Source of the DNA: Promethearchaeota archaeon
GTDB lineage: Archaea; Asgardarchaeota; Lokiarchaeia; Sigyniarchaeales; SOKP01
Assembly (NCBI GenBank): GCA_030603385.1
Contig: JAUVXW010000001.1
Span: 64,001 to 128,000, forward strand
DNA: 64,000 nt
Direction: 5' to 3'
Shown: one piece after another, positions 7,317-16,087 of the stretch
Layout of the letters: every line of letters starts with the position of its first letter
How positions within the stretch are numbered: position 1 is the first letter of the stretch
Position numbers and translations under genes: made by a program
The notes under the pieces: model-generated
What the model saw: the letters and a program-made list of their open reading frames with translations, nothing else
Databases searched by the model: none
What the model was told of the DNA's origin: nothing

Positions 7317-10307
7317 TTGCCGAGTCCAAGAAAAGGAAGAAATAAAAAAGCTGAAGATCAAATTCAAAAATCATTATTTTCCTTTGTTGATGAAAAAGAA
7401 AAGGAGAAGAAAGAACCAGCAGAAGAGTCTAAGAAAGAGCAAATTAAAGCCTTAGAAAAAGAAAAACCAATTGAAAAAGCTACGACTACTGAAGAAGAGA
7501 AAATTGTAGAAACTCAATCAAAAGAAAAACCTGAAATAAAAAAAATCTCTCAAATCTCCTTCTTTAAAGAAAAAGATGAGCCCTTTGGATTAATGGAAAG
7601 TAATATAAAGTTAGAAAAAGTCCTCAGAGAAGGAGTAACCTCAAAATATATCCGTTATTTGATTGCAAAGGGAGAAATAGTCGAGAATTTAGATAGAGGA
7701 TTATTACTGGATGTTGATTATGATGGTGGACAAAACAAAGCATTTTGTAAATTCTATGATTTAGACACTGAGGATATAAAGATTTGGATTGATACAACTG
7801 AGCATGAACCTTATTGTTTAAGTAAAGAGCCAATTTCCGAATTAGAAAAATTATATTATTCAGAAAAAATTGGACAAACGAAGCAGAAAAAGAAATTAAC
7901 CGATTATGTGGGATTCAAGCGATTCGAGGAAATAAAACGATTTGATTTATTAAAAGATAAAGAAATTAAAATGACAAAGCTATACGGTGATACTCCTATA
8001 GATATAGGGGGCTCCGGAACGAATCTTCGTAATATCTTAAATGAAAATAAAAAGAAGGCGTGGGAAGCAGATATACGGTATCATTTAAACTATATCTTTG
8101 ATAGACAACTAATCCCTGGGTTAATTTATAGCATAAAAAATGGGAAACTTGAAATATTAGATTTTGAGAAAATTGATGATAATTCTAAAAGAATGGCTGA
8201 CGAGCTTCGAATTCTATTTAAAGACGAAGCTCCAGAAATTCAAGAATTCTCTGAGAAATTTTTAAATATCTTTATTACGCCTATCCCTGATGTCAAGCGT
8301 GTGGCTATGGATATAGAGATTAAAATAGGTGAAAAAGATTATAGAATTCCTGATCCACGTTCAGCTAAACAAGAAGTTATCAGTGTATCGTTTGTAGCTA
8401 CTGATGGATTAAAAGTAGTGTATATGCTTGAACGAGAAGATTATAGTTTTGAAAAACTTCATGAAGAATTTCCCTCAGATGCAAGAATTGTTCTCTTTAA
8501 ATCTGAAAAGGAATTAATTACAGAAACGTTTCGGCTCCTATGGAAATATCCTGTTGTTATAACTTTTAATGGCGACAATTTTGATTTAAACTATCTATTC
8601 CATCGAGCGAATGAAAAATTGAAGATTAATAGAGATTTAAATCCTATTCATGTAAAGCGAGGTTTTGGAATCTTATCAAAAGCAGAGTGCGATTTAAGAA
8701 GCGGAATTCACATTGACGTATTTAATATATTCTTTAATAGAAGTATTTCAGGATATGCATTTGGAGGTGTTTATGAAAGTGCTTCTCTCAATGCCATTAG
8801 TGCTGCCTTATTGGGAGAAGAAAAGTATCAACATGAGGAACTAATTCATGAAATGGAATTTGATATTCTTTCATGGTATAATCTTAAAGATTCCATATTG
8901 ACACTAGATCTTACGAAGTTTAACAATTCTCTCGTTTGGAACCTGATAATTCTATTATGTCGAATAACAAAAATGCCAATCCATGATATGGTGCGAAGGC
9001 AGATTTCAACCTGGATACAAAATATTTTTTATTTTGAACACCGTAGAAAAGGTTATCTAATTCCTCAACGGTCAGAAATAAGAGAATTAAAAGAAGGGGG
9101 AAAATTATCATCTAAGACTAATGATGAAAAATTCATGGGAGCCTACGTTATTCCTCCTGTTCCTGGAATTCATTTTGATGTTGTTGTCATGGATTTCGCC
9201 TCACTTTATCCCTCTATAATTAAGGAATATAATCTTTCTTACGAAACAGTTTTATGTCGTCATAAAGATGATGAGGATAATCTAGTCAAGGGGACTCCTT
9301 ATCATATATGCACGCATAAAATGGGAATATTTGCTTATGTAGTCGGCTTTTTCCGTGATATTAGGGTAAAGTATTTTAAACCAAAATCAGGCGATAAAAG
9401 CTTATCAGAAAAACAACGTAGTTATTACCAAACAATCCAACAAGCGCTTAAGGTTTTTATTAATGCTTCCTACGGAGTCTTTGGCTCACAAAACTTCCCT
9501 TTGCTTTGTTTACCCGTAGCAGAAAGTATTACAGGAATCGGACAGTATTCTATTAAGCAAACAATCAAAAAAGCTAAAGAATTAGGTGTAGAGGTTTTAT
9601 ATGGGGACACAGATTCAATTTTTCTTAAAAACCCTACAAAAGATCAAATGAAAGAAATATCCGATTGGAGTAAGAAAGAATTAGATTTAGATTTAGAAGA
9701 AGAAAAAACATATCAATTCTTAGCCCTTTCTGAAAGAAAAAAGAACTATCTTGGTATATATAAAGACACTAAATATGTTGACAAAAAGGGTTTAGTTGCT
9801 AAGAAGAAAAACACTCCCGAATTTATCAGAACTGTATTTAACGAAGTAATTGAAATCTTAAAAAATATCAATAATAATGAGGATTTTTTGAAAGCACGAA
9901 AATCTATTATTGATATTATTAAAATAAACAGAAAAAAAATAGGTAAAGAGGGTGAATTCAACTTAGAAGACTATTCGATTAATATAAGTATGCAAAAATC
10001 ACTTAAATCTTATGAGAAAACGATCCCCCAACATGTGAGAGCTGCGTTAGAATTAAAAGCCAGAACAGGAAGAGAACTCCAAAAAGGAGACAATGTTAAA
10101 TTTATCAAAAGTAACGATAAAATTGGAGCTAAAGCGTTTGAATTGGCTAAATTTGGAGATCTAGATGTTAAAAAGTATAAAGAACTATTGAGATCAGCAT
10201 TAGAGCAGTTATTAGATGCATTAGGAATTGAATATGAAGAAATTATTTTAAAAGGATATAAAAAGAAGAAAGAAGCCGAACCAAAACATCAATCGACACT
10301 TTTTTAA
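7317..10307 (+). CDS. polB: Family B DNA polymerase (PolB1-like) with charged N-terminal extension
   Basis: ExoI DIE, ExoII FNGDNFD, ExoIII YNLKD; polymerase motifs DFASLYPS, KVFINASYG, YGDTDS, KKNY. Confidence 0.97.
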   Translation: MPSPRKGRNKKAEDQIQKSLFSFVDEKEKEKKEPAEESKKEQIKALEKEKPIEKATTTEEEKIVETQSKEKPEIKKISQISFFKEKDEPFGLMESNIKLEKVLREGVTSKYIRYLIAKGEIVENLDRGLLLDVDYDGGQNKAFCKFYDLDTEDIKIWIDTTEHEPYCLSKEPISELEKLYYSEKIGQTKQKKKLTDYVGFKRFEEIKRFDLLKDKEIKMTKLYGDTPIDIGGSGTNLRNILNENKKKAWEADIRYHLNYIFDRQLIPGLIYSIKNGKLEILDFEKIDDNSKRMADELRILFKDEAPEIQEFSEKFLNIFITPIPDVKRVAMDIEIKIGEKDYRIPDPRSAKQEVISVSFVATDGLKVVYMLEREDYSFEKLHEEFPSDARIVLFKSEKELITETFRLLWKYPVVITFNGDNFDLNYLFHRANEKLKINRDLNPIHVKRGFGILSKAECDLRSGIHIDVFNIFFNRSISGYAFGGVYESASLNAISAALLGEEKYQHEELIHEMEFDILSWYNLKDSILTLDLTKFNNSLVWNLIILLCRITKMPIHDMVRRQISTWIQNIFYFEHRRKGYLIPQRSEIRELKEGGKLSSKTNDEKFMGAYVIPPVPGIHFDVVVMDFASLYPSIIKEYNLSYETVLCRHKDDEDNLVKGTPYHICTHKMGIFAYVVGFFRDIRVKYFKPKSGDKSLSEKQRSYYQTIQQALKVFINASYGVFGSQNFPLLCLPVAESITGIGQYSIKQTIKKAKELGVEVLYGDTDSIFLKNPTKDQMKEISDWSKKELDLDLEEEKTYQFLALSERKKNYLGIYKDTKYVDKKGLVAKKKNTPEFIRTVFNEVIEILKNINNNEDFLKARKSIIDIIKINRKKIGKEGEFNLEDYSINISMQKSLKSYEKTIPQHVRAALELKARTGRELQKGDNVKFIKSNDKIGAKAFELAKFGDLDVKKYKELLRSALEQLLDALGIEYEEIILKGYKKKKEAEPKHQSTLF

Positions 10308-10339
10308 TTTTTCAATATTTTGAAAGGAGTGTATCGATT

Positions 10340-12397
10340 TCAAGATTCAATGTCATGAACTAAGATTCCGTTTGTTGAGATAAACCAGCCATTGTCAGTC
10401 TTTATATTAAAGATATCATGATTTTTCTTAATTTTTTTTATAGATTTGATTTTTACGGGAGTTGTACTATTGAATTTGAGAAGCCCCATGAATTTTCTTT
10501 TATAATGTTTTCCTTTGGTCTCTACTATGCGATGACAATTATCTGAAGGAGAAGAATTGTGAATAGAAACAAATTGCCCAATTGCTCCTAACATACTCAC
10601 TAAATCATTTTTTAATTGTTTACTTACTGTTGTAAATCTTCTTAATCCATTTGGTAATTGATCACCATCACCCTTATAGTATGCATCTAAAAAAGCGTTT
10701 ATCCTGTCATTTGTTAATAATTCAAATGGAATTCTCTTATTTTGAGCTAACTTTGAGCATAAATTTGTGGTTAATTCCATCAACATATTTGAATTTATTC
10801 TAATCATGTTATTTCCGTTATTTGTCACAGGAAAATTTAATTGTTCAAGAAGATTAATGATTTCTCTCCAGTTTTCGTAATTTTTACTTTTTGATTGGCT
10901 AATCTGAATCCTATTTTTATCTGTACTACCTTCTGAAGCATACCAACCCAAATATCTGAAGAAATCATTAGTTAATGGAACAATTGAGGAATACCAATAC
11001 CCAACTCTTTCATGAATTTTTATTAAAATTTCAATATTTTTTCTCCTCGCTTCATTTTCAAGTAATTGTCTTTCCGAATTTGATAAATTCGACCAGATTG
11101 TTCTATATATTTTAGCTACCTTAGAATATTGAAATTTAGAATTAATTAGTTGTATTAACGGATCATTGGTCTGTTGATTTGTCCTATATGAGAATTTTAG
11201 ATATTCATTCCTCTTTATTCCAACCCATCGATTCTCCCAATTTAGGAAGCTAGGAATAAAAATAAGATCTAGAACATTTGAAGAGAGTAGAATCTTATGG
11301 AGCACCAGCAAATTATCTTCTTTATTTAGATCTCGAGCCTTGGTATATTTAACATACCAATCATTTAATGTGGAATCATAGGATTTATTGCGAATTCGAA
11401 TCACCATTTTAGGAATTATTTGATCTGGAGTGCAAGTAATGTGTCTTCCATCAGATAAACGAATATTTAGTAAGTTTGAAGATTTACTTCTTGTAAAATC
11501 CCTAATATGTATAAATTTTGGAGCCCCAAATAACTTACCTTTTTTGTTGATTGATAATATTTTTAAATTTTGCCATGAATTCTCTAGAAATCCAATTTGA
11601 ACCTTGTTAACTATCCCCTTTGTATCCTTTACCACTATTTCCTCATCATAAGGAAGCCCACTTTTGATTTTCTTGTTTCTAGATTGATAACCTGAATCAA
11701 TTTCCTCAAATGGATAATTCTTTAAGTTTTTAATTATTGTAGCTTCAAATTTTGGAAGACCTTTCATTTCCCACATCTCCGAAACTAATTTAAACACGGT
11801 TTTTGTCAGCCATAATAAAAAAATTTTAACATGTGCATGATATTTTTGATCTAATTGAATTTTATTTTGCAATAATTTAAGCCAATCTTCAAATTCCTCA
11901 ATACTAAGTCTAAATAAATTTCCTAATAATTTATTGCTTATACGTTTATTAATTATTGGTTTAAGGTAATTTGCTAAATCATAGAGTAAGGATTTTGTTA
12001 GGTTCACTCGACATATGAAAGTATTTGCATTTTGTTCCCATGTTCTTATAAAAAGGTAGATTAAGCGAGAGATAACAATAATTAAATTTTCTTTAAAAAT
12101 TTGAGGGAAATCATTGTCTCCCAAAATCAAAGCTACAGAGATTTTTTGAGATTTCCTTATCTTAATGACTCTTCTAATTAAGGATTTCGTCTTTGGACCT
12201 AAATTTTCTTTTGTGTTTATAGTAATATCATTATTATGCCAATCTCTACAATTAATGCTTGAATAATTAATTTCTAATCCACAAAATTCACATAAAGCAA
12301 ATTCTTTATTTTCTGTGATTCTTTGAATGATTTCATATGGTATTTCCCAACCACAATATTTACAGAAATTTGTAGATTTTTTTCCTTTTTCGATCAT
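10340..12397 (-). CDS. Zn-ribbon + helical domain fused to degenerate intein (Hint) with LAGLIDADG homing endonuclease
   Basis: CKYC/CEFC N-terminal Zn ribbon; intein block A-like (S)GLPYDEEIVVK at aa ~246, block B GRHITCTPDQ, LAGLIDADG blocks YLGWYASEGS and AFLDAYYKGDG, blocks F/G IFNIKTDNGWFISTNGILVHD. Confidence 0.88.
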   Translation of the reverse strand: MIEKGKKSTNFCKYCGWEIPYEIIQRITENKEFALCEFCGLEINYSSINCRDWHNNDITINTKENLGPKTKSLIRRVIKIRKSQKISVALILGDNDFPQIFKENLIIVISRLIYLFIRTWEQNANTFICRVNLTKSLLYDLANYLKPIINKRISNKLLGNLFRLSIEEFEDWLKLLQNKIQLDQKYHAHVKIFLLWLTKTVFKLVSEMWEMKGLPKFEATIIKNLKNYPFEEIDSGYQSRNKKIKSGLPYDEEIVVKDTKGIVNKVQIGFLENSWQNLKILSINKKGKLFGAPKFIHIRDFTRSKSSNLLNIRLSDGRHITCTPDQIIPKMVIRIRNKSYDSTLNDWYVKYTKARDLNKEDNLLVLHKILLSSNVLDLIFIPSFLNWENRWVGIKRNEYLKFSYRTNQQTNDPLIQLINSKFQYSKVAKIYRTIWSNLSNSERQLLENEARRKNIEILIKIHERVGYWYSSIVPLTNDFFRYLGWYASEGSTDKNRIQISQSKSKNYENWREIINLLEQLNFPVTNNGNNMIRINSNMLMELTTNLCSKLAQNKRIPFELLTNDRINAFLDAYYKGDGDQLPNGLRRFTTVSKQLKNDLVSMLGAIGQFVSIHNSSPSDNCHRIVETKGKHYKRKFMGLLKFNSTTPVKIKSIKKIKKNHDIFNIKTDNGWFISTNGILVHDIES

Positions 12398-12437
12398 TTA
12401 ATTTCATTATTTACATTTATATTTAAAAAAAAATAAT

Positions 12438-12462
12438 TAGTCTTTATTATCTCTAAAGACTA
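12438..12462. promoter_or_regulatory. Inverted repeat upstream of the endonuclease gene (possible operator)
   Basis: TAGTCTTTA-N7-TAAAGACTA, about 40 bp before the start of 10340..12397. Confidence 0.3.
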
Positions 12463-12629
12463 TTAGAATTTTCTTACACCTTCGGTTATATTATGTATAT
12501 TCTCTATAGGTTTATTATTATTTTATATAAATCTAAGAAAATATTTTTTATAAAGAAGAAGAGAGAATAGAAAAACGATAAAACTGAATATATTTTTCTA
12601 CGGAATAATTATATTGAATTTAAAATAAG

Positions 12630-12914
12630 CAAAAAAACTTGGAAAATTATACCAAAGTTGTTCCTCAGCATGTTAGAGCAGCTAAAGAATTAATGAAGGT
12701 CACAGGAAAAACATATCAAAAAGGTGAAACAATTAGTTTCATCAAAAGTAAAGGGGCACTCGGAGCTAAAGCAATTGAACTTGCTAAACTCCAAGACATT
12801 GATACTAACAAATATAAAGAACTTTTAAAATCTGCTTTAGAACAGGTCTTAGATGCTCTTGGTATTACTTTTGAAGAAATTAGGGGAATTAAAAAGATGG
12901 ACGCCTTTTTCTAA
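12630..12914 (+). pseudogene. Displaced/duplicated 3' fragment of polB (thumb C-terminus with PIP-like tail)
   Basis: QKNLENYTKVVPQHVRAA...LEQVLDALGITFEEI aligns without gaps to the PolB C-terminus (53/84 identical by hand count); ends GIKKMDAFF; in-frame stop at 12621-12623 just upstream. Confidence 0.9.
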
Positions 12915-13139: not shown

Positions 13140-13490
13140 ATGAATTTTAATCAGGATGAGATTATTAAAGAAGTTTTTGAAAAAAAGAATCAAATAAATT
13201 CTAATACATTTACCATAACACGTTTCATTTTACTCACTTTGCTTTCATATTTCATTGATGGTCTTCAATTTCGTGAGTTAAAAGCATCATTAAAAATCTC
13301 AGATGGGAATATAGCATCAAATCTTCTTTATTTAACAAAGATGGGATATATTAATAAAAATGCATTAGAATTTGATAATAAAAAATTACATTATTATACC
13401 ATTACGGAGAATGGAAAAGAAGAATTAAAAAAAATATTAAATTGGATGGAATTAATAAAAAAACTTTTGGGGGAGACTAATGATGAGTGA
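13140..13490 (+). CDS. Winged-helix transcriptional regulator (ArsR/MarR-like)
   Basis: FRELKASLKISDGNIASNLLYLTKMGYI helix-turn-helix and YTITENGKE wing. Confidence 0.85.
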   Translation: MNFNQDEIIKEVFEKKNQINSNTFTITRFILLTLLSYFIDGLQFRELKASLKISDGNIASNLLYLTKMGYINKNALEFDNKKLHYYTITENGKEELKKILNWMELIKKLLGETNDE

Positions 13491-14028
13491 AGATTTTAAA
13501 AAAGTTATTTCAGTTCTAAAATATTGGGATATGTATTTGGAACGGCCTAATAGAAATTATGGTTCTCGGTTTAAAATTCAAAAATTAACTTATTTATGTA
13601 AATCAATGGGATTTCCTCTCAAATATCAATTTACCTTATATATTAGTGGACCATATAGTACAGGATTAACCCGAGACTATTTTAATGCACCTCAATTAAT
13701 AGAAACGCTTGAAACAGATTATATTTTAAATGAAGTTGATTTAGAAATTTTAGATAAAATTAATGAATATGTGCTTATTCATCCGATCACTAATAATTAT
13801 GAATCAGAGTTTTTAGAAGCAGTATCAACAGTTGATTATTTAAAAAAAAGATATCCTGACATGTTAGATGATGAAATATTTGCAAAAACTAAAGAAGTTA
13901 AACAATATTTAAAAGATTCTATAGTTGTCATTGCTATTAATACTGTAAAAAAACTATTATTTAAACCAGAGTTCTTAACTGAAGAAGTTCAAGAGGAAAT
14001 TGACATCTGGGATAAAGCAGAAGATTAA
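13480..14028 (+). CDS. Putative antitoxin, Panacea/DUF4065(SocA)/YwgA-like
   Basis: RFKIQKLTYL...YQFTLYISGPYSTGL and LEAVSTV motifs; directly upstream of a PemK-family toxin. Confidence 0.65.
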   Translation: MMSEDFKKVISVLKYWDMYLERPNRNYGSRFKIQKLTYLCKSMGFPLKYQFTLYISGPYSTGLTRDYFNAPQLIETLETDYILNEVDLEILDKINEYVLIHPITNNYESEFLEAVSTVDYLKKRYPDMLDDEIFAKTKEVKQYLKDSIVVIAINTVKKLLFKPEFLTEEVQEEIDIWDKAED

Positions 14029-14042
14029 CATCTGGGGATATT

Positions 14043-14411
14043 ATGGAACGATGGAGAAGGTTTCAAATAAAAAGGCGAGAAATATGGGATGTTAAATTAA
14101 GTTATCCTGGTGAAGGAGTTGGCCATGAAGAAAGATTTCCACATCCTTGTATTGTTATTAAATATAACAAATTTGTGGATATGGCAACTATTATACCTTT
14201 AACGAGTAATGTACAAGCATTAAAGGATTTTCCATATACCCATATAATAAATCCTAATACTTCAAATGGTTTAACTAATCAATCAATTGTAATGATATAT
14301 CAAGTTCGATCTTTAAGTAAACAACGTTTTTTACGAAAAAAAGGGAGAGTAATAAGAGACAATTATGATAAGATTCAAACTATTTTTAAAGATTATTTTC
14401 AACTATATTAA
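14043..14411 (+). CDS. PemK/MazF-family endoribonuclease toxin
   Basis: RREIWDVKL...GHEE..PHPCIVI, IIPLTS, NGL...S.V...QVRSLSKQRF motifs. Confidence 0.85.
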   Translation: MERWRRFQIKRREIWDVKLSYPGEGVGHEERFPHPCIVIKYNKFVDMATIIPLTSNVQALKDFPYTHIINPNTSNGLTNQSIVMIYQVRSLSKQRFLRKKGRVIRDNYDKIQTIFKDYFQLY

Positions 14412-14488: not shown

Positions 14489-14902
14489 CTACTTCTTACT
14501 GAATTCGTTTGGATTTCCTCCAGTTTCAAGATATTCAGCATATTTTTTTAAACTTTTTAACAGCATCTCCCCTGCTATTCCTAATATCTGTTCTTGGCTT
14601 GCATCGTCAAATTCTGCCCAAATTGTTGCCTCAACAACATCTCCTTTTGGTTTTAAAGCATATCCCAAACTTGTCATTGGACTACCCTCTTGAGTTGCTG
14701 ATAAACTCTCAGGGGGGTTTGTTTCTATACGAGTCGATGTTACGTCTCCAACATTCGTTTTAAAAAAATAGTTACCTGGACCAAGTTCTTTGACTTCATT
14801 AACTACGATATTCCACCTAGGATAATCGTTGTCTTCATCTATGATCTTAAAAATTCTCTCTTGAGATGCGGAAATATCAACTTTTTTTTCTACACGTGGC
14901 AT
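14489..14902 (-). CDS. SRPBCC (START-like) family protein
   Basis: VDISASQERIFKII...YPRWN N-terminus and C-terminal helix LKSLKKYAE. Confidence 0.7.
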   Translation of the reverse strand: MPRVEKKVDISASQERIFKIIDEDNDYPRWNIVVNEVKELGPGNYFFKTNVGDVTSTRIETNPPESLSATQEGSPMTSLGYALKPKGDVVEATIWAEFDDASQEQILGIAGEMLLKSLKKYAEYLETGGNPNEFSKK

Positions 14903-15004
14903 AAAATTAACACCTTATGAAATTCAATTGAAATCTTTATAATTTCGATTAAATATCTTTAGAACGAGATAATTTATAAAACTTTATTTTTTTAAGATAC
15001 TCCA

Positions 15005-16087
15005 TTACAAGATATAATACAATAAGCCCATTATCAAGGCACTAAAAATGGGATTTAGAATATTATCATCTATCTTATGATTTGAAACATCAATTATAAG
15101 GAATGTTATTGCTCCACTAAATGAGATTACTAAAATCTCAAATAATATTAACGAACTTTCAAATATCCACAAAGAAATGAATGCAATACCGAATGAAGTC
15201 AGAAATCCTGCGATATAACCAATAATAGTCTTTTCTGATGATTTAGGATAATGAATCTTTCCAAATTGAAGACCAAAAACAGATGCGGCACCATCCCCTA
15301 ACGTTGCAATCAGAGAAGCTGCTGCAAAAATACCAAACGGAAAAATAAAAATAGGGGCAAATGATAAAGCTAGTATTAATGGTTTAATATAATTATAATT
15401 TTCATTTCGCTTCATAGTCTTTCCTAATAGATTCAATACATTCTCAGGGATCAAATGGAATAAGTTATGATTTTCGAAAATAAATGATAATCTGATATAA
15501 TCTAATCCCCCTAAGATTAATATACCTGAATAACCAGCAGTTAAAATTAAAAAAAGACCAAACTGCTGGCCAGTAATTCTCCATACCTCATCAGCATTCC
15601 ATAGACCAGCCCATATATAAACAGCAAAAATCCACAGAAAAATAATAATTCCTGCTGGGAATAAATGTAAAGCTTTTCGGTGGATATCCGTTTTAATTTT
15701 ATGAGATCTTAAACTGTTTAGGTCGTCTTCTTGTTTATCAAACTTATTTAAAAAGCTCTTAATATTTCTCCTTTCCTTAATATCTGGATCATTCCTTAGT
15801 ACTACTCGGTGTTGATAAAAAAATATCAAGAAAATCAAAAAGGGTGTAATTATACAAATAAAAAACATGGATAGGATTTGAAACAACCTAAAATGTGGAT
15901 TACTTAAAGATAAATACAATGGATATATTAGTCCCGCGATAATCCATAAGAAGAAAGTCAAAATACAGTTTACAAAATTATGTTCCTTAGGAAATTTCTG
16001 ATTCAGTTTAATAGCATAGTAAAACAAGCCAAATCCGCTAAATATAAAGAGAATTGTTACTGGCAATAATACTATGTCATATACCAT
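15005..16087 (-). CDS. CTP-dependent polyprenol/phytol/diacylglycerol kinase-like membrane protein
   Basis: RKALH, LGDGAASVFG, KTIIG and IDDNIL motifs of the dolichol/phytol kinase family; multi-TM. Confidence 0.8.
   Translation of the reverse strand: MVYDIVLLPVTILFIFSGFGLFYYAIKLNQKFPKEHNFVNCILTFFLWIIAGLIYPLYLSLSNPHFRLFQILSMFFICIITPFLIFLIFFYQHRVVLRNDPDIKERRNIKSFLNKFDKQEDDLNSLRSHKIKTDIHRKALHLFPAGIIIFLWIFAVYIWAGLWNADEVWRITGQQFGLFLILTAGYSGILILGGLDYIRLSFIFENHNLFHLIPENVLNLLGKTMKRNENYNYIKPLILALSFAPIFIFPFGIFAAASLIATLGDGAASVFGLQFGKIHYPKSSEKTIIGYIAGFLTSFGIAFISLWIFESSLILFEILVISFSGAITFLIIDVSNHKIDDNILNPIFSALIMGLLYYIL

Follow-up and report, generated by a model that had tools for sequence, protein, structure and literature searches.

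A probable homing element that replaces the DNA polymerase B gene's 3' end in Promethearchaeota (Asgard) archaea

Organization of the polB locus

This study concerns a 64,000-nucleotide stretch of a Promethearchaeota archaeon genome (GenBank assembly GCA_030603385.1, contig JAUVXW010000001.1, positions 64,001 to 128,000 of the forward strand), hereafter the window, in which polB, the gene of a family-B DNA polymerase, is followed by a convergent free-standing endonuclease gene and then by a second copy of its own 3' end. This layout had been read from the letters of the window alone (hereafter the sequence-only reading) as a homing element that swaps the end of its host gene, an interpretation that our comparative analyses make probable.

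The polB gene (7317-10307, + strand) is full-length, as had been stated, with a translation of 996 aa and Pfam matches to DNA_pol_B (7.5e-47) and DNA_pol_B_exo1 (3.5e-22). Its last part, from about aa 797/845 to aa 996 (9705-10307, + strand), ends in ...KKKKEAEPKHQSTLF and is referred to here as tail A; identity drop, tail tree and tree tests mark it as a replacement 3' end. The endonuclease open reading frame (ORF; 10340-12397, - strand), which encodes 685 aa, is convergent with polB and begins 32 nt past its stop; its LAGLIDADG_3 match (E 2e-5) lies above the cut-off, and its Intein_splicing match below it. Two parts can be distinguished in this protein, an N-terminal C4 zinc-ribbon plus helical module (aa 1-243; 11669-12397, - strand) and a Hint + LAGLIDADG module (aa 244-685; 10340-11668, - strand), the latter intein-derived and non-splicing. 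The gene is single-copy in the 3.9-Mb assembly, in which the window lies on contig 4, and an AT-rich spacer of 229 nt (12398-12626, about 20% G+C), presumably containing its promoter, separates its start codon from the partial polB copy. This copy comprises only the last ~95 codons (12627-12914, + strand), has the same orientation as polB, carries the canonical tail ...EEIRGIKKMDAFF and is cut off from the rest of any polB frame by in-frame stop codons just upstream.

The fragment matches PolB aa 893-983 (BLASTP E 5e-33) with 56/91 identical residues (62%) and one 2-residue gap near the end, which is close to the ungapped 53/84 of the sequence-only reading. At the DNA level, the longest identical run between the polB tail and the fragment is of ~11 nt, and the two copies therefore represent neither a fresh duplication, in agreement with the sequence-only reading, nor the core of an att-type repeat. 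Likewise, no integrase or transposase domains were found in the ORFs neighbouring the locus, in line with the earlier claim.

Empty and occupied alleles

Sixty-four polB 3' loci of the family were collected, 59 of them with a complete tail; the extra tail copies of G150, G152 and G193 were left out of the count, as they lie at contig ends and are possibly strain variants. The canonical tail ...EEIKGIKKMDAFF (the …GIKKMDAFF type, to which the window fragment also belongs) ends 47 of the 59 complete polB tails, and an intact endonuclease gene lies behind none of these 47, in agreement with the empty alleles that had been predicted. Swapped tails of three types, A (...KKKKEAEPK.Q.TLF), B (...SLETLEFQKLDGFI) and C (...KKKEKK...FDDFF), occur in seven alleles, all seven with inserted genes behind them; an eighth swapped allele, of type A, is that of G194 (L037), where the contig ends just before the polB stop. 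In five genomes of another genus the tail is A-like and nothing is inserted after it, and G265, the sixth member of this group, carries an intein at motif B of the polymerase. This genus is a plausible source of tail A; unless it is that source, its A-like tails have lost everything else. All tail types end in a short hydrophobic/aromatic motif (…MDAFF, …STLF, …LDGFI, …FDDFF), which looks like a clamp-binding box, a function that the swapped tails have probably kept.

The order polB, convergent endonuclease, polB tail fragment was also found in G227, G171 and G175, whereas G183 has polB and a convergent endonuclease (487-aa form) and has lost the fragment. Homologues of the endonuclease were searched for in 400 genomes of the phylum and, more widely, among 5.8 billion proteins, the latter yielding ten free-standing homologues, all of them tail-to-tail with a polB that has a non-canonical tail. 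Five of these proteins, not represented in the genomes above, were inspected on seven contigs (L115-L121): the endonuclease is convergent with polB on 7/7, and the contigs long enough to show it (L117-119 and L120) all have a canonical fragment past the endonuclease gene, L115, L116 and L121 ending earlier. The occupied alleles foreseen in the sequence-only reading, with an endonuclease and a canonical-type fragment, are thus represented by G227, G171, G175 and L117-L120, and the link of the endonuclease homologues to the polB 3' end holds for all. Such confinement to polB is what marks a nuclease whose copies go only into the locus that it targets.

An assembly chimera, which had been named as a possible refutation, was rejected as unlikely, given the recurrence of the layout in independent assemblies with different junctions and the stop or frameshift found in some fragments, which no live allele could carry. 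As a separate observation, the canonical-tail polB of L079 (G170:C6), which has glycine at residue 717 (see below), is followed 4-90 nt past its stop by a 29-residue endonuclease remnant (E 7e-10), the trace of a lost or reverted element.

Contradictory phylogenies of polymerase body and tail

Over aa 300-830 the PolB body of the window is 90-92% identical to those of the empty alleles L038, L040 and L041, whereas its tail (aa 845-983) is 66-67% identical to theirs and 85% identical to that of the occupied L031. Separate trees, as the sequence-only reading had proposed, were built for the body (PolB aa 100-800) and the tail (aa 850-983), and they are incongruent. In the body tree, the five tail-A alleles are split over four (starred) clades, each beside empty alleles, and their monophyly was rejected (delta lnL 553; approximately unbiased (AU) test, p 2e-6). 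In the tail tree, the same five alleles form one clade (100/97), and placing the attached tail of the window with the clade of its body was rejected (AU p 4e-8). The groups compared in all AU tests were defined by tail type, at a time when the tails but not yet the body tree were known. We therefore regard the attached tail as foreign to the polB body, and the window polB as chimeric, its body being resident and its 3' end element-borne.

That the fragment represents the displaced resident end, as had been suggested, was supported in part. Placing the window fragment with the clade of its body is compatible with the data (AU p 0.33), and three other fragments each group with the tail of an empty allele that is sister to their body (L036-L057, 99/94; L032-L065, 100/96; L034-L078, 100/83); the window fragment itself nests among the canonical tails of empty alleles with no specific partner in the tail tree. 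It is 78-86% identical to canonical tails and to the fragments of other genomes. Its dN/dS against canonical tails is 0.06-0.08, within the 0.06-0.12 of fragments overall and compared with 0.03-0.05 among working tails, values so low that each fragment must have been a working tail until recently, which points to recent displacement of that in the window.

These results bear on another scenario, in which the polB 3' end was duplicated locally in tandem and the copies diverged, the endonuclease gene being inserted between them later, as one ancient event inherited vertically. It would account for two copies in the same orientation 2.3 kb apart, yet it is contradicted by the tree tests: the attached copy, and not the fragment, is the odd one, its kin being the tails of occupied alleles whose bodies belong to other clades, and the fragments show almost none of the divergence expected under relaxed constraint. 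We consider it the least credible of the alternatives weighed here.

Intein ancestry of the free-standing endonuclease

In the 400-genome search, residues 244-682 of the endonuclease were 62-67% identical to stand-alone ORFs of ~480-500 aa and 35-46% identical to inserts within open frames of 1300-1700 aa, which are polB genes with a genuine intein at motif B (junctions KVFIN(G/A)↓C...HN↓SYG). Across the ten free-standing homologues the Hint + LAGLIDADG module is 60-75% identical to that of the window. The ten stand-alone forms constitute one clade (Shimodaira-Hasegawa-like approximate likelihood ratio test, SH-aLRT, 100), which groups (97) with motif-B inteins of the same order and shares a specific 13-residue insertion in the Hint domain; the closest solved relative is PI-PkoII (2cw7). 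We conclude that the endonuclease is, by sequence relationship, a descendant of a PolB motif-B intein, and that it is predicted not to splice. Its intein Cys1 has become Gly247, the terminal Asn has become Asp682 and the +1 Ser has become Ile; in the alignment, the stand-alone forms have Gly at Cys1, Asp or other residues at the terminal Asn and no +1 nucleophile. The protein is accordingly not an intein itself, being encoded by a separate ORF on the opposite strand with all three of these positions replaced.

The nuclease part has been conserved. Both catalytic motifs are retained in the window protein (LGWYASEGS, aa 483-491; LDAYYKGDGD, aa 570-579), the acidic residues of the two LAGLIDADG motifs are kept across the stand-alone forms, and pairwise dN/dS values of 0.21-0.38 indicate a gene under purifying selection. 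That the protein cleaves polB, and where it does so, we infer from these features and from the comparisons presented below.

The sequence-only reading of the protein as Zn-ribbon/Hint/LAGLIDADG stood for the gene and for the Hint and LAGLIDADG domains, and the ribbon proved not to be general, since it occurs only in the WIN/P0006 subclade. Cys12, 15, 36 and 39 of this N-terminal module are invariant in 13 homologues. Its AlphaFold2 model (aa 1-243, mean pLDDT 74) displays a small ribbon and a helical bundle, and a Foldseek search of the PDB with this model of moderate confidence returned nothing below E 1. The closest kin of the module (30-54% identical) are the N-termini of a paralogous family of LAGLIDADG proteins from the same genus. 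At L099-L104 (G177, G224, G181, G211, G185), such N-ribbon paralogues head LAGLIDADG-bearing proteins of 545-690 aa, possibly domesticated endonucleases. At five of the six loci (L100-L104) their genes share a conserved three-gene context, being preceded by one for a prenyltransferase-like protein (~1010 aa) and one for a trypsin/CARDB protein (~590 aa). No duplicated gene ends were seen flanking the N-domain paralogues at 16 loci (L099-L114), which gave no support to the idea of a whole family of tail-swapping elements at other genes.

Candidate cleavage sites in polB

Motif B of the window polB (KVFINA↓SYGVFG; 9450-9485, + strand) corresponds to the insertion site of the inteins ancestral to the endonuclease and is a candidate target and immunity site. 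PolB aa 100-822 was screened for columns at which at least 85% of the endonuclease-less alleles share a residue and at least four of the five bearing alleles differ. Residue 717, which directly precedes the ancestral intein insertion point (codon at 9465-9467, + strand; Ala in the window), was the only column to pass. In 42/48 endonuclease-less alleles this residue is Gly, and in the 10/10 alleles that carry the gene it is Ala or Ser (Fisher's exact p 1.5e-7), the latter residues being reached via several codons and at times with residue 718 or 719 also changed; all five independent pairs on the body tree agree (sign test p 0.06, the minimum for five pairs). This pattern fits an enzyme that would have kept the motif-B target of its ancestors, immunity being conferred by the change of Gly717 to Ala/Ser.

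A related arrangement was found in another family. In G131 (L095, G131:C119, 2820-9610), polB carries at motif B a mini-intein that has lost its endonuclease domain, and directly downstream lies a convergent ORF of 1020 aa (P0003), the last 435 residues of which correspond to the free-standing endonuclease module and the first 585 to two ~250-aa repeats of no assigned family; the polB tail is unswapped and no fragment is present. This arrangement also fits cutting at motif B, and G131 may be an intermediate of the collaborative-homing type.

The enzyme may cut polB at the old intein site in motif B and not in the tail, a proposal with immunity through Gly717 to Ala/Ser that we see as evenly poised between right and wrong. 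Cleavage at aa 840-900 of the canonical tail, by analogy with the yeast elements discussed below, is put forward more tentatively, and a site elsewhere seems improbable. In different genomes of the family, further polB inteins were observed at ~aa 630 near motif A (L050, L058), at ~aa 738 (G274) and at ~aa 765 in motif C (L076, L077); with three sites in use besides motif B, polB is a crowded target for homing elements.

Boundaries and contents of the inserted unit

Compared with its closest empty relative, L038, the window polB shows 93-98% DNA identity at aa 765-795 and ~60-78% from aa 800 on, and in other allele pairs identity breaks at aa 835-855. The replaced segment hence begins at ~aa 797-855, further upstream than the position 9993 first proposed, and its left edge in the window (9705-9850, + strand) is a recombination zone and not a point. 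Among loci, the left junctions spread over ~60 codons and the right junctions over ~100.

This spread, together with the absence of long identity between the copies, is relevant to integration by an integrase into the polB 3' end, with the old end as the far att repeat and the recombinase encoded elsewhere or lost. Integrative elements at the 3' ends of tRNA or protein genes have the same geometry, in that the gene end is rebuilt by the incoming DNA and the former end, moved aside, forms a direct repeat. Here, by contrast, no integrase, transposase or recombinase domain was found in or beside any element, the copies share no identical core longer than ~11 nt, the variable junctions fit homologous repair and not a fixed att site, and the minimal element contains only a tail and the endonuclease gene, so that integrase-type integration appears very improbable.

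To the right, the resident flank is formed by a 137-aa gene, convergent with polB, and a 360-aa gene (14489-16087, - strand), which mark the empty site; in the empty loci closest to the window (L038, L040, L042, L058, L061, L074), the 137-aa gene ends 44-55 nt past the polB stop. Between the fragment and the 137-aa gene, the window harbours three small genes (13140-14411, + strand) for a winged-helix regulator, a 182-aa protein of no assigned family and a PemK/MazF-like toxin; they are absent from the other 63 polB loci, which indicates a separate insertion at the same spot.

The contents of the interval differ among loci. A 266-268-aa CxxCxxCC ORF (PF03692) lies between endonuclease and fragment in L033 (5261-6067) and L034 (4249-5049), and four unrelated ORFs (147, 445, 404 and 286 aa) occupy that place in G227. 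In L036 (G177:C24, 5723-7856) and L035 (G225:C208, 3234-5367), two co-oriented genes, P0004 and P0005 (373 and 336 aa), are found between the swapped tail and a decayed fragment. The nucleotide identity profile between G225 and G177 (body, 70-82%; tail, 86-90%; cargo, 94-99%; fragment, 78%) reveals a unit with sharp limits and a recent transfer, the polB bodies of these two species being ~78% identical. A PD...EAK motif is present in P0005, and the Atlas model of this protein is similar to MJECL32 proteins and, to a weak degree (TM 0.3-0.4), to PD-(D/E)xK nucleases, which is no more than a lead; in G165 and G151, homologues of P0005 lie on contigs other than that of polB. The cargo ORFs of other loci could be assigned to no firm family in Pfam, NCBIfam or PADLOC, in which only faint matches to BrxF, DarG and AbiEi appeared.

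A variable interval of this kind could also be a passive island, in which the whole spacer from polB to the 360-aa gene is swapped by ordinary homologous recombination after DNA uptake, the tail being dragged along by crossovers inside polB and the endonuclease being an inactive or domesticated passenger. The spacer does range from 16 nt to 6.6 kb across genomes with unrelated contents, the G225/G177 unit moved recently without a LAGLIDADG gene, and the same place holds the CxxCxxCC ORF, the four ORFs of G227 and the toxin-antitoxin-like genes of the window. Exchange through conserved flanks would, however, not push a 3' end aside as a fragment, and fragments descended from resident tails are seen repeatedly; moreover, a passive passenger does not agree with purifying selection and retained catalytic residues in the endonuclease, nor with the location of all its homologues at polB and none elsewhere, and the codon-717 association has no place in such a scenario. 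We regard the passive island as unlikely.

Comparison with known homing systems

WHO elements, described in the yeasts Torulaspora and Lachancea, have been presented as a third category of homing elements beside introns and inteins (Coughlan et al. 2020, PMC7282813; Osborne et al. 2026, bioRxiv 10.64898/2026.08.13.744650). They encode an intein-like LAGLIDADG protein without exteins and with a zinc finger and replace the 3' end of FBA1, and their loci show intact or broken fragments, discordant 5' and 3' trees and an arms race at the cut site (PMC7282813; bioRxiv 10.64898/2026.08.13.744650). As of August 2026, their authors place them in yeasts only, and our literature search found, among the papers it covered, no report of a WHO-like element in archaea or bacteria, as the sequence-only reading had supposed for archaea.

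The polB element resembles WHO in pairing an essential host gene's alternative 3' end with an intein-derived, extein-less and non-splicing LAGLIDADG gene just downstream, in the old 3' end displaced downstream as an open or decaying fragment, in the contradictory 5' and 3' trees and in the diversity of tail types. It differs in its host gene (polB instead of FBA1) and host (archaea instead of yeast), in its independent origin, from an intein at PolB motif B within the same archaeal order, and in the convergent orientation of the endonuclease gene. The C-terminal GATA-like zinc finger is lacking here, the N-terminal C4 ribbon being unrelated to it and confined to one subclade; multi-gene clusters were not observed, the edges of the fragments vary, a second immunity site may exist 100 codons upstream, and cleavage is presumed from sequence. 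The common descent that unites VDE, HO and WHO does not extend to this protein, which, judged by tree placement and not by comparison with yeast sequences, nests among the archaeal motif-B inteins of its own order. With HO, the polB endonuclease shares an intein-like LAGLIDADG architecture without exteins and an added metal-binding, DNA-binding module, but HO is domesticated, unlinked to its target and serves its host, whereas the archaeal gene stays at its presumed target and behaves selfishly. Relative to archaeal PolB motif-B inteins such as PI-PkoII (2cw7), it has a homologous Hint + LAGLIDADG region (35-46% identity), the same catalytic motifs and the same host gene, but it lies outside polB, out of frame and on the opposite strand, with three splicing residues replaced and the 13-residue insertion in Hint.

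Free-standing endonucleases of phages provide a further parallel. In intronless homing (T4 Seg, Mob), the endonuclease gene adjoins the cut gene without lying inside it and spreads by co-conversion of flanking markers, as proposed here, and in collaborative homing a free-standing enzyme acts beside an intron that lacks an endonuclease, an arrangement that the mini-intein and downstream endonuclease of G131 look like. To our knowledge, the phage cases involve no displaced copy of a gene end and no diverged replacement end, and their enzymes are GIY-YIG or HNH proteins, not former inteins.

A model of 3'-end replacement

Taken together, the comparative tests all gave what a WHO-like strategy predicts, and we think it likely that the locus is a homing element of this strategy, neither intron nor intein, which arose independently in Promethearchaeota (Asgard) archaea. 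Its predicted unit is the diverged replacement 3' end of polB plus the convergent gene of the free-standing LAGLIDADG endonuclease. By analogy with the WHO mechanism (PMC7282813), DNA of an occupied cell would meet an empty allele, by a route between cells that we infer, and the endonuclease would cut the canonical polB. The left end of the break would then invade the donor polB, with synthesis passing through the donor tail and the endonuclease gene, and the right end would be captured where the canonical tail of the recipient matches the donor fragment. The product would consist of the recipient body with a foreign tail, followed by the endonuclease gene and by the old tail as a fragment, and later decay or loss would leave endonuclease remnants or a fixed foreign tail.

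Several observations weigh against this model. The G225/G177 unit, considered its main weakness in a purely endonuclease-driven form, has a swapped tail and a fragment with P0004 and P0005 in place of the LAGLIDADG gene, which implies that tail swapping can do without this endonuclease or can use a different nuclease. The conversion tracts begin at aa 775-855 and do not reach codon 717, and G177 keeps Gly717, both in conflict with the motif-B clue. The 5' edges of the fragments range from aa 841 to aa 939 among loci and mark no single cut site, and a search for stretches of 24 nt that are conserved among empty alleles and altered in every occupied one gave several weak candidates (~aa 856-866, 895-900 and 940-946), none of them decisive. 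Tail type and endonuclease lineage are not strictly co-inherited, as L033 and L034, whose endonucleases are sisters, have tails of types B and C. Every locus seen has a single endonuclease gene, with no endonuclease-gene clusters and no tandem arrays of the kind found in WHO clusters. Finally, the data are metagenome assemblies of different species, in which polymorphism within species is not seen.

Conclusions

We slightly favour the broader view that the third homing class, that of 3'-end replacement, had a second origin, in Asgard archaea, when a PolB intein escaped from its host gene, ceased to splice and took up a place downstream, and that it now moves between species and keeps reshuffling the clamp-binding C-terminal end of a replicative polymerase. 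If this is true, the mini-intein and free-standing endonuclease of G131 would be a living intermediate on the way from intein to tail-swapping element, completing a stepwise series from in-frame intein through mini-intein with a free-standing enzyme to tail swapping, and the change of Gly717 would represent an arms race at the old intein site. The strategy of 3'-end replacement would then be general and able to arise directly from an intein, and these loci would offer new LAGLIDADG enzymes with natural pairs of target and immunity sites. DNA exchange among Asgard archaea is little known, and active homing between species would imply that it occurs regularly; the same process would explain the modular C-terminal tail of PolB in these archaea.

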